This document shows positions 4,826-7,760 of a DNA stretch of 16,293 nucleotides, in pieces. Both the position numbers and the translations under genes were made by a program. The stretch's first letter is position 1. Each line of letters begins with the position of its first letter. A model generated the notes under the pieces. It worked only from the letters and a program-made list of their open reading frames with translations, did no database searches and was not told where the DNA came from. Origin of the DNA: Promethearchaeota archaeon (GTDB lineage: Archaea; Asgardarchaeota; Thorarchaeia; Thorarchaeales; Thorarchaeaceae); assembly GCA_014728035.1 (NCBI GenBank), contig WJMJ01000105.1, positions 1-16,293 on the forward strand, read 5' to 3'.

Positions 4826-4966
4826 TTAAATAAGTTCTCTATTTCTATCCACAATAAGAGCTATTTCTCGCAGAGCATCAACCGACGCGGACTCTTGATG
4901 TATTACTTTGTCCAGACTTCCATAATGTTCCTCTAAACATTGTAATAACAGTCGTTTGATTCGTTC
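4826..4966 (-). pseudogene. Detached 46-aa C-terminal fragment of the nucleotidyltransferase at 6996-7760
   Basis: Hand translation [46 protein letters not shown]. It has no ATG or RBS of its own, is AT-rich like the backbone, and continues ...SDLQYGPSL naturally. Confidence 0.8.
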
Positions 4967-6621
4967 TACCATTCGCCATAGCCGAGCCCTTCCAGATTAG
5001 CCTTGATTTTGGCTTCGAGGCGGTCGGATTCGGCGAACTGCGTATACAGCTCGGCACTCAGGCGGGCCATCTTCTCCTCAAAGGGTTCGCCGTCGTCCTC
5101 CACCTCCGCTGCGCCGACGTACCGCCCCGGCGTGAGGACGTGTCCGTGCCGGGCAATTTCCTCCAGGTCGGCGGATTTGCAGAAGCCGGGGACGTCCTCG
5201 TATTTGCCCGCGCCCTTTTCGCCGCGCCAGGCGTGATACGTCCGTGCAATGCGGCCGATGTCGCTGTCGTCGGGAAGCGGGTACTCGTCCCGCCCGCTCA
5301 ACACGCGCAGAGTGCGCGTTTCCATCGTCCCCATCTGCCGCGCGTCGATGAAAAGCGTCTCGCCCCGGCGATCGCGCCCCTTGGGCTTCAGGTTCTTGCC
5401 TGTCTTGTCACGGCTGACAAACCAGAGGCAGACGGGGATGCCCGTCGTCAGGAAGAGCTGCGCGGGCATGGCGACAATGCAGTCCACGAGGTCGGCTTCG
5501 ATCATGCTCTTGCGGATCTCCCCCTCCCCGCTGCTGCCGGACGAGAGTGAACCGTTGGCCATGACAAAGCCTGCAATGCCGCCGCCCTTGCCGTTGGGCG
5601 GGGCGAGGTGGTGGATGAAGTGCTGAATCCACGCGTAGTTGGCATTCCCCACGGGTGGCGCGCCGAATTTCCAGCGCACATCATCCCGCAGGAGATTGCC
5701 CGACCAGTCGGAGACATTGAACGGCGGATTGGCGAGTATGTAATCGGCCTTGAGGTCCGGATGCAGGTCGCGCACGAAGCTGTCGGCGGGCTGCTCGCCG
5801 AGGTTCGCTTCAATGCCGCGAATCGCCAGATTCATGTGTGCCAGCCGCCATGTGGTTGGGTTGGACTCCTGCCCGAAGATGGAGATGTCGGTGCGCACTC
5901 CACCGTGTACCTCGACAAACCGCTCCGACTGAACAAACATCCCGCCCGACCCGCAGCATGGGTCATACACCCGCCCCTCGTAGGGCTCGATCATCTCCAC
6001 GAGCAGGCGCACTACCGAGCTGGGCGTAAAGAACTCGCCGCCGAGCTTTCCTTCCGCAGCGGCAAACTTGCCGAGGAAGTACTCGTACACGCGCCCGAGC
6101 ACATCTTTCGCACGGGCCTGGTCGGTGCCGATGGCGATGGAGGCGATTTGGTCGATCAGGCCGCCGAGCCGCTCCGGCGGGATGCCGCGCCGTGCATAGT
6201 CACGCGGGAGCTTGCCTTTGAGCTTGGGATTGTCGCGCTCGATGGCGTACATCGCATCATCGATCAGCTTGGCAATGCTCGGCTGTTTGCCCTGATTCTG
6301 AAGATTCTGCCAACGCGCCTCGGGTGGAACCCAGAAGACACTCTCGGCGGTGTATTCGTCGCGGCTTTCGAGCAGTTTCTCTGCCTCCTTGCCTTCGATT
6401 CCGTCCGCCTTGAGCTCCTCGGCCAGCCTGGCGCGGCGAGATTCAAAAGCATCGGAGATGTATTTGAGGAAGATCAGGCCCAGCACGACATGTTTATACT
6501 CGGCCGCATCGACAGAGCCGCGCAGCTTGTCCGCTGTCTGCCAGAGTTCTTCCGGATCCACGCCGAGTTCGCGGGGGCTGACGAGTTCGAATTCTGTGTT
6601 TGTTGCTTTCTTGGCTGACAT
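4966..6621 (-). CDS. hsdM: Type I restriction-modification methyltransferase subunit M (N6-adenine)
   Basis: N-terminal [41 protein letters not shown]-binding DPCCGSGG, catalytic NPPF, C-terminal LTPGRYVG...FEEKMARL. Confidence 0.97.
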
Positions 6622-6995
6622 TTAAAACACGTCCTTTTTTAATAAGCGCGACGGCTATGCTATTTCGGCCACGATCAACCCGGGATTCCAGACGCGCTTC
6701 GCCTCAGCGATTCGGATTCTGCTTCAACCACTTGTCAATCGCGTCCCGGAAGCGCCAGTGGCGGCCGACCTTCTGGCCGGGGATCTTGCCCCGCTGGGCC
6801 AGCTTGTATGCCGTAGTTAACGAGAGCTTGAGGTATTCCGCAAGCTCCTGGATCGTGAGGACCTTGTCCTCGATCTCTCGTGCCAAGGCCTGTCTCCCGA
6901 AATGCGAACCATTGTGGTAAGGAATCAGGCCTGATAATCTACCAGCAACGACCAATTGTCGCAAGCGGAAACGGGATATTTGCCCAGGGAATAAT
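4967..6995. mobile_element. Foreign GC-rich insert (~2029 bp) carrying HTH + hsdM; mechanism unknown
   Basis: Abrupt GC step (37/60 G+C at 5041-5100 versus 16/60 at 7021-7080) and interruption of a backbone gene. No transposase, integrase, terminal inverted repeat or target duplication seen. Ends uncertain by a few bases. Confidence 0.75.
6704..6886 (-). CDS. Excisionase-like helix-turn-helix DNA-binding protein (HTH_17 type)
   Basis: VLTIQELAEYLKLSLTTAYKLAQRGKIPGQKVGRHWRF. Likely TTG start at 6886 with GGAG 8 nt upstream. Confidence 0.88.
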   Translation of the reverse strand: MAREIEDKVLTIQELAEYLKLSLTTAYKLAQRGKIPGQKVGRHWRFRDAIDKWLKQNPNR

Positions 6996-7760
6996 CAAAG
7001 AAGGTCCATATTGAAGATCACTGGAATGATATAAATCTTCCAGATGTTTTTCTTTCTGTTCAAAATATGTTGATAATCTTTCTTCGGTCCATTCTCCACG
7101 ACGAATTGCCTTCATAACCTCTCTTCGATCTTCTCTATCTAAGGTAAGATCGCCTTCCCTTAGAATCTGCTCGACTTCTCCAACAAGACGATATACATGA
7201 TATGCAAACTTGGTGTCCATGCCATATTTGTTCCGAATCTCATGTCTTTTGGATCCTGGTTCAGTCTTTTTGCTGCTCATTTTGTGAAGTTGTGAATAAG
7301 AATAGCCTTTGAATTTGTGATAAGATCCCTTGTGCAAAAACATTTTTCGGTTCTCACGGACAAGCTGCCCAACAATAGTATTGTGTAATATACAGCGTTC
7401 TGGTACGAAGAGCACATCAACCATATTGGGGTTGTTTTCCATACAAAGTTGGAAGAAGCGTACAATCCCATAAATACAGAAATCATAAGACACGCACCTA
7501 TCTGAGTCTTCAATGTGATGCATCTGCCATTGATTAAAACGCTGTATCTGCTTTCCAAGTCCCTGAATATGACCAGCTAGATGCGGAAAAACATCTGTCT
7601 TGGGCGGGATACAAAATCCACAAATGTCCATATCTGATGTATTTGATGATACTCCATAAGCCGCACTTCCTGTTAATACTTCATACATGAGATTATCAGG
7701 AAGGAATTTGGGTGGATTGATCAGATTTTTCTGTTTACATTCTTGCACACGACTACTCAT
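6996..7760 (-). pseudogene. Pol-beta-fold nucleotidyltransferase (RlaP-like), interrupted by the GC-rich insert
   Basis: GSAAYG...SDMDICG, NNPNMVDVLF, DTKFAYHVYRL, IRRGEW. ATG 7760 has GGAG upstream. The last 18 residues of track ORF 6939-7766 (IIPWA...RCW) appear to be read-through into the insert. Confidence 0.85.

Follow-up and report, generated by a model that had tools for sequence, protein, structure and literature searches.

Several described systems share features with the locus reported here. In T4-like phages, genes are split by free-standing homing endonuclease genes, for instance nrdA/mobE of phage Aeh1, and in type I restriction-modification (R-M) systems the methyltransferase subunit HsdM cannot recognize DNA by itself. 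Orphan DNA methyltransferases in phages provide anti-restriction by self-methylation, and the Ral protein of phage lambda illustrates that boosting host type I modification helps the phage, HsdM's N-terminal domain controlling the choice (PMC12707154). Among the nucleotidyltransferases (NTases) that accompany RNA ligases in jumbo phages, RlaP is the commonest; it extends damaged 3′ ends of RNA by nucleotides before ligation (PMC12776372, PMC7824862). In PfRlaP, a three-helix bundle with the NTase domain is closed by the C-terminal helix (PMC12776372). Here, we analyzed an RlaP-type gene which is interrupted by a GC-rich block carrying hsdM. The gene lies on contig C74, whose entire length of 16293 bases is the window of this study and which is one of 173 contigs in a 4.33-Mb bin, an archaeal metagenome-assembled genome (MAG; 97.9% completeness, 8.5% contamination). 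We favor, with a probability of roughly 55%, a genuine, recent and accidental capture of bacterial DNA by a phage through illegitimate recombination.

The preliminary description of this DNA had proposed that a GC-rich block of about 2029 bp sits inside a phage NTase gene, and this was confirmed. The block has a GC content of 60.8%, compared to 40.5% in the remainder of the contig and 39.5% in the bin, and the most GC-rich 1-kb windows among all 173 contigs lie within it. Deleting positions 4967-6995 (2029 nt) restores an NTase open reading frame (ORF) of 301 aa, with the break between codons 255 and 256. As it stands, the NTase frame runs from the ATG at 7760 to ...DLQYGPSL at 6996, continues through 18 foreign codons and stops at a TAG (6939-6941), yielding a truncated ORF of 273 aa including the foreign tail; the phage flanks read ...CCTTCTTTG on one side of the block and GAACGAATC... 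on the other. The N-terminal fragment is 45-62% identical to jumbo-phage homologs, and both pieces match the same genes of GenBank phages (Caulobacter phage C2, CcrSC, XacN1) collinearly, in frame and gap-free. In Caulobacter phage C2, the two matches cover 48623-49360 and 49367-49492, and no residue is missing. A search with the rejoined protein, as suggested earlier, returned homologs which span the junction, most of the 80 IMG/VR loci aligning in a single high-scoring segment pair (HSP). In the alignment of 55 full-length relatives, none has a gap at residues 251-263. The C-terminal segment LLxCLExHYGSL, whose absence from homologs had been named as an argument against a split gene, is present in all 55, and the near-invariant residues L262, C265, E267 and G271 are located in this piece. 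Collinearity, the single HSP through the junction and the gap-free alignment across it prove the split-gene model. Moreover, the NTase retains 59 of 60 near-invariant columns in the alignment with its relatives.

The gene has the Pol-beta NTase domain and the neighboring RNA ligase gene expected of RlaP (PF10127), and it lacks a continuous polypeptide including the C-terminal helix, as the ORF is broken at 255/256. The insertion cuts after residue 255 and detaches 46 C-terminal residues with the most conserved motif. Since the last helix completes the three-helix bundle with the catalytic domain, loss of these residues should cripple the enzyme, and RlaP is probably inactivated. An exception would be that a C-terminal peptide of 48 aa, translated from the in-frame ATG at 4970-4972 which overlaps the hsdM stop codon (ATGGTAG), complements the rest of RlaP in trans, but this is speculation. 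For an intact NTase homolog, no solved relative was found by sequence in the PDB. In other jumbo phages, the RlaP gene is interrupted at approximately residue 88 and residues 165-178 by inserts of 190-1140 nt (IMG/VR loci L141, L144, L146, L151, L152, L154, L156-L161, L163, L164), so other phages tolerate a two-piece RlaP gene. Several of the inserts encode ORFs which are GIY-YIG/Seg-like (L157, L158, L163) or have weak matches to TnsA-like endonucleases (L146, L156), and no Rfam intron was found at the gathering score in 12 of the interrupted loci.

The block itself contains an excisionase-type helix-turn-helix (HTH) gene and a complete hsdM, in agreement with the preliminary description (Table 1). 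At none of the 167 columns that are near-invariant among 87 relatives does HsdM deviate from the consensus, and it has the motifs NPPF at 298 and DPxCGSG at 220; together with the HsdM_N and N6_Mtase domains, the near-invariant residues identify it as the methyltransferase subunit of a type I R-M system. The HTH protein matches the TIGR01764 excisionase-family domain (57 bits) and its gene is separated from hsdM by 82 nt, so that non-coding DNA amounts to only 109 + 82 nt in the whole block. Within the leader, an imperfect palindrome may be a candidate operator for the HTH regulator, and no consensus sigma-70 site in the leader passed the scan. No match to HsdS (Methylase_S) was detected in the window or in the 4.33-Mb bin, which may not contain the real host of the phage, and no HSDR_N match in the bin reached the family cut-off for HsdR. 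The sole HSDR_N match (20.9 bits) is on contig C169, where a 617-aa open frame (C169:10-1704) combines N6_Mtase (64.5 bits) with this sub-threshold domain. Possibly encoding an enzyme of the bin in which restriction and modification are fused, this frame is unrelated to the block. Lacking a DNA-recognition subunit of its own, the HsdM of C74 would be inert unless it pairs with the HsdS of the infected cell.

Table 1. Features of the split NTase gene, the inserted block and their surroundings on contig C74.
Feature	Position	Strand	Details
tRNA-Ser(TGA), 89 nt	1163-1251	-	ARAGORN; Rfam 61.5 bits
RNA ligase gene, functional partner of RlaP, directly downstream of the NTase gene	3652-4737	-	Pfam RNA_ligase; PHA02142 OB-fold domain; PHROG 968; TIGR02306 188 bits, above cut-off
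NTase C-terminal fragment, 46 aa + stop	4826-4966	-	conserved LLxCLExHYGSL segment
hsdM, complete, 551 aa, TAG stop at 4966-4968	4966-6621	-	HsdM_N E 2.8e-28; N6_Mtase E 4.5e-96 (full profile)
Foreign block, 2029 nt, 60.8% GC; borders each uncertain by a few bases	4967-6995	-
HTH gene, 60 aa, TTG start after GGAGA	6704-6886	-	Pfam HTH_17 E 1.3e-15; excisionase/MAD1-like family
Non-coding leader of the block, 109 nt, ~47% GC	6887-6995	-	GC counted from sequence
Imperfect 30-nt palindrome TGGTAAGGAATCAGGCC / GGCCTGATAATCTACCA (read on the plus strand)	6915-6944		30-60 nt upstream of the HTH gene
RlaP-type NTase N-terminal fragment, residues 1-255	6996-7760	-	Pfam PF10127 RlaP E 1.8e-17; PHROG 388 nucleotidyltransferase
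Motif TATAAATA, 12 nt upstream of the NTase ATG	7772-7779	-	sequence
Phage mini-array (guide array)	9375-9567

The closest relatives reach at most 80% nucleotide and 86% amino acid identity, and their operons continue in the order hsdM-hsdS-(Abi_C)-hsdR. In the nearest one, L172 (hsdM-hsdS-Abi_C-hsdR), the end of hsdM and the start codon of hsdS overlap. The Abi_C-domain gene of L172 (7883-8596) is enclosed by hsdS and hsdR, and the starts and stops overlap here as well. HTH_17 homologs are found directly upstream of hsdM in the GC-rich relatives L019, L021 and L173-L175, and the GC content of the block matches that of the GC-rich relatives (59-64%). Judged by this gene order, the block corresponds to that part of a type I R-M operon which is nearest to the promoter, and it breaks off a few codons into hsdS. 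The preliminary description had regarded a clean end at the hsdM stop codon as a sign of an artifact. The end is less suspicious than it appeared, as it is not clean: the block stops about 13 nt past the position equivalent to the hsdS ATG, inside the region in which hsdM and hsdS overlap, and the last base of the hsdM TAG (G at 4966) doubles as the first base of a phage GAA codon. The crossover is uncertain by a few bases, since neither the donor nor an empty site was recovered. The donor search proposed earlier returned nothing close: GTDB species genomes gave at best 86% aa / 78% nt, IMG/VR 84% aa / 80% nt, and JGI metagenomes 85% aa; hsdS follows hsdM in the closest relative L172. The top matches are spread over Planctomycetota, Acidobacteriota, Verrucomicrobiota, Actinomycetota and Alphaproteobacteria, so that no single lineage can be given as the donor. 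Isolated phages with HsdM matches proved to carry hsdS or host DNA, and a megablast of positions 4000-8200 against GenBank phages found nothing.

Contig C74 encodes a virion structural protein (PHROG 19943), thymidylate synthase, dCMP deaminase, an RNA ligase, the NTase and a tRNA-Ser(TGA); by its gene content, it is clearly phage DNA. The genes closest to the NTase belong to jumbo-phage contigs of 200-600 kb and to jumbo phages of Caulobacter, Rhizobium and Xanthomonas, and the contig would be a piece of a large T4-like or jumbo bacteriophage which composition binning has put into the archaeal MAG. Upstream of the NTase gene, the motif TATAAATA fits the T4-type late promoter consensus. It has two copies only in the window, both just upstream of a minus-strand start codon, a count which is not above chance.

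Among approximately 90 viral loci with relatives of the C74 HsdM, a single other orphan was found, while the rest keep hsdS. This is L178 (IMGVR_UViG_3300025130_000058), a Mu-like phage contig of 34-45% GC with Mu portal, Mu F, protease I and Rha/ANT genes. Its hsdM at 982-2550 (region 800-2600, 55-64% GC) is accompanied by neither hsdS nor hsdR; it has a terminator-like hairpin on one side and the morphogenesis genes on the other. About 20 nt beyond the hsdM stop codon, the GC-rich DNA comes to an end, and only a 21-codon hsdS remnant follows. Both cases share an un-ameliorated hsdM without hsdS and hsdR in low-GC phage DNA, ending near the hsdM stop. In contrast to the block of C74, the hsdM of L178 occupies a moron-like position between genes and comes without an HTH gene, and its product is only 62% identical. 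The capture in L178 was an event independent of the one in C74.

In the scenario we prefer, the RlaP gene would have acquired, between its codons 255 and 256, approximately 2.03 kb of bacterial DNA that is GC-rich and un-ameliorated, in a recent non-homologous (illegitimate) recombination in which transposase, integrase, intron and homing endonuclease were all uninvolved. The captured piece would be the front end of a type I R-M operon, consisting of the leader with its regulatory sequence, the gene of the small HTH protein and an undamaged hsdM. In this view, the block would be young passenger DNA in one phage lineage, at best the raw precursor of an anti-restriction gene and not an evolved system. 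A recent date is indicated by the undecayed state of target (59/60) and cargo (167/167), and by a block GC equal to that of the bacterial relatives. The preliminary description had left the choice between capture of the front part of a type I R-M operon and an artifact. Capture fits the gene order of L172, while an artificial insert was judged unlikely: NCBI nr contains both HsdM and the truncated NTase ORF, foreign tail included, from one 16293-base contig (each a singleton at 90% identity), so the block belongs to the deposited record, and the phage gene would be frameshifted by an insert with the complete TAG. Several points speak against a genuine and accidental capture. Neither junction is backed by reads, coverage or a second assembly, and the 3′ border lies within a few bases of a gene end, which would be rare under random breakage. 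No donor above 86% amino acid identity was found in GTDB species genomes, IMG/VR or JGI metagenomes; likewise, an exact 23-mer of the phage flank detected no empty-site copy of the phage in IMG/VR and JGI metagenomes, and no filled-site copy either. The insertion caused no target loss and has no visible microhomology, for which reason we can only infer the recombination mechanism. Finally, a donor of 61% GC and a phage of 40% GC must have met in one cell. This is possible; T4-like cyanophages and Synechococcus are an example of such GC-discordant sharing between phage and host.

If the contig were instead an assembly or scaffolding chimera, a block from a GC-rich bacterium of the same sample would have been threaded into the phage contig, and the real RlaP gene would be intact. 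The contamination of the MAG (8.5%), the block being a singleton without an independent record, the abrupt jumps in composition at both sides, the gene end adjoining the 3′ border, and the presence of another abrupt GC-rich block between pieces of a phage gene on contig C26 of the same bin would all suit a chimera. However, two false joins would be needed, resuming at the very next phage base and in frame. Assembler chimeras normally form at shared sequence or repeats, but no repeat is common to both sides at either junction, the phage flanks and the block share none, the block is present only once in the bin, and no second haplotype was found there. Furthermore, the parallel case of L178 stems from another sample and another phage type. 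Since a precise insertion with two junctions and without shared repeats is hard to obtain from an assembler, we consider a chimera unlikely and the insertion as such, whether accidental or selected, probably real. Selection would mean that the block is an anti-restriction module, in which phage HsdM joins host HsdS and either accelerates de novo methylation of the phage DNA or poisons the host restriction complex. The effect would resemble that of lambda Ral, achieved via subunit supply, and it is plausible because Ral boosts host type I modification, acting through HsdM's N-terminal domain; in addition, some HsdM mutants methylate faster and lose restriction (PMC12707154). The block forms a complete expression unit (leader, regulator, intact hsdM) oriented like the phage genes, and in a second phage, L178, a capture restricted to hsdM has been cut at the same point of the operon. 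Nevertheless, neither amelioration nor conservation is observed, both orphan hsdM genes being singletons with nearest relatives at 80-86%, only two orphans occur among the approximately 90 viral loci, and the insertion destroys a counter-defense gene. We rate a selected module as improbable. More doubtful still is the generalization that captures of hsdM alone, cut where it overlaps hsdS, recur among phages and serve as a countermeasure by subunit supply or poisoning, through early methylation of phage DNA or by keeping the restriction complex from forming, with C74 and L178 as young examples.

An autonomous or spliced element targeting the NTase gene (group I/II intron, intein, insertion sequence or transposon, integrative element) appears very improbable. 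Its appeal lies in the excisionase family of the HTH protein and in the interruptions of the same gene by GIY-YIG/Seg-like or weakly TnsA-like ORFs elsewhere in jumbo phages, but the content of the block is that of an ordinary operon fragment and none of the 80 homologs (IMG/VR loci) is interrupted at residue 255/256. A self-splicing intron was rejected as no group I/II ribozyme core was found in an Rfam scan of the whole window even at E <=1, which returned only the tRNA and chance matches, and stop codons of the NTase frame inside the block rule out an intein. The preliminary description had noted the absence of hsdS, hsdR, recombinase, inverted repeats and target duplication, and indeed none of these was found; the block contains no recombinase or endonuclease gene, and the terminal inverted repeats, target-site duplication and transposase of a transposon or insertion sequence are all missing, which rules out a transposon or an integrative element. 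RNA-guided insertion by the phage mini-array was also considered and dismissed, since no 18-mer of the array matches positions 4500-7900 with <=2 mismatches.

The GC-rich block of contig C26 (C26:6010-7175, corresponding to L166 2010-3175) deserves a separate description. It reaches up to 68% GC, lies in another phage contig, and separates two ORFs: a small one, which starts with the sheath N-arm-like motif MNYINPGVYVKEID, and one which opens directly with the Phage_sheath_1C domain. At its edge (L166 2030-2097, minus strand), a compact tRNA-like sequence matches the tRNA-Sec model with 21 bits, which is below threshold; ARAGORN made no call, and a possible CUA anticodon can be read from the sequence. 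The 117-aa ORF of this block has no relative in 5.8 billion clusters, and for this reason the C26 block neither supports nor weakens the assumption of a chimera in C74.

If the junctions of C74 are real, the locus records, in very fresh and legible form, the acquisition of host defense DNA by a lytic-type phage, in which cargo and broken target are still pristine and the cost to the phage is an RNA-repair counter-defense gene. Together with L178, it raises the question of whether HsdM without HsdS can be of use to a phage that faces type I restriction. Should the junctions prove false, the locus calls for caution over chimeric phage contigs in published Asgard MAGs.

Compared with known systems, the block resembles the phage orphan DNA methyltransferases derived from R-M systems in being a methylase without a nuclease in a phage and in its foreign composition (PMC12707154), but those enzymes are self-sufficient (type II-like), whereas the HsdM of C74 needs an HsdS and none is present. 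Should the block be functional, the outcome would equal that of lambda Ral, namely faster modification of incoming phage DNA by the host type I specificity; Ral is a 67-aa modulator acting on host HsdM, while the C74 phage would supply HsdM itself. The MAD1-MAD2 pair (NCBIfam NF047737, NF047738) of the methylation-associated defense system (MADS) has a matching gene order, and the HTH protein resembles MAD1. Membership in MADS was rejected, as the scores of 63.6 bits for MAD1 (cut-off 80) and 40.7 bits for MAD2 (cut-off 720) are too low. Genes split by homing endonucleases (nrdA/mobE, and RlaP in L157, L158 and L163) likewise consist of two undecayed ORFs with a start codon for the downstream piece, but the C74 insert has no endonuclease, is compositionally foreign and occupies a site unused in the 80 homologs. 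The type I operons in which an HTH_17 gene lies upstream and an Abi gene is enclosed (L172, L175, L019, L021) have the same HTH-hsdM order and an HsdM which is 70-86% identical, and the block of C74 differs from them in being cut at the hsdM/hsdS overlap. Taken together, the event is most likely ordinary in kind, a phage capture of host R-M DNA, and slightly unusual in form, an hsdM-only fragment inside a counter-defense gene.

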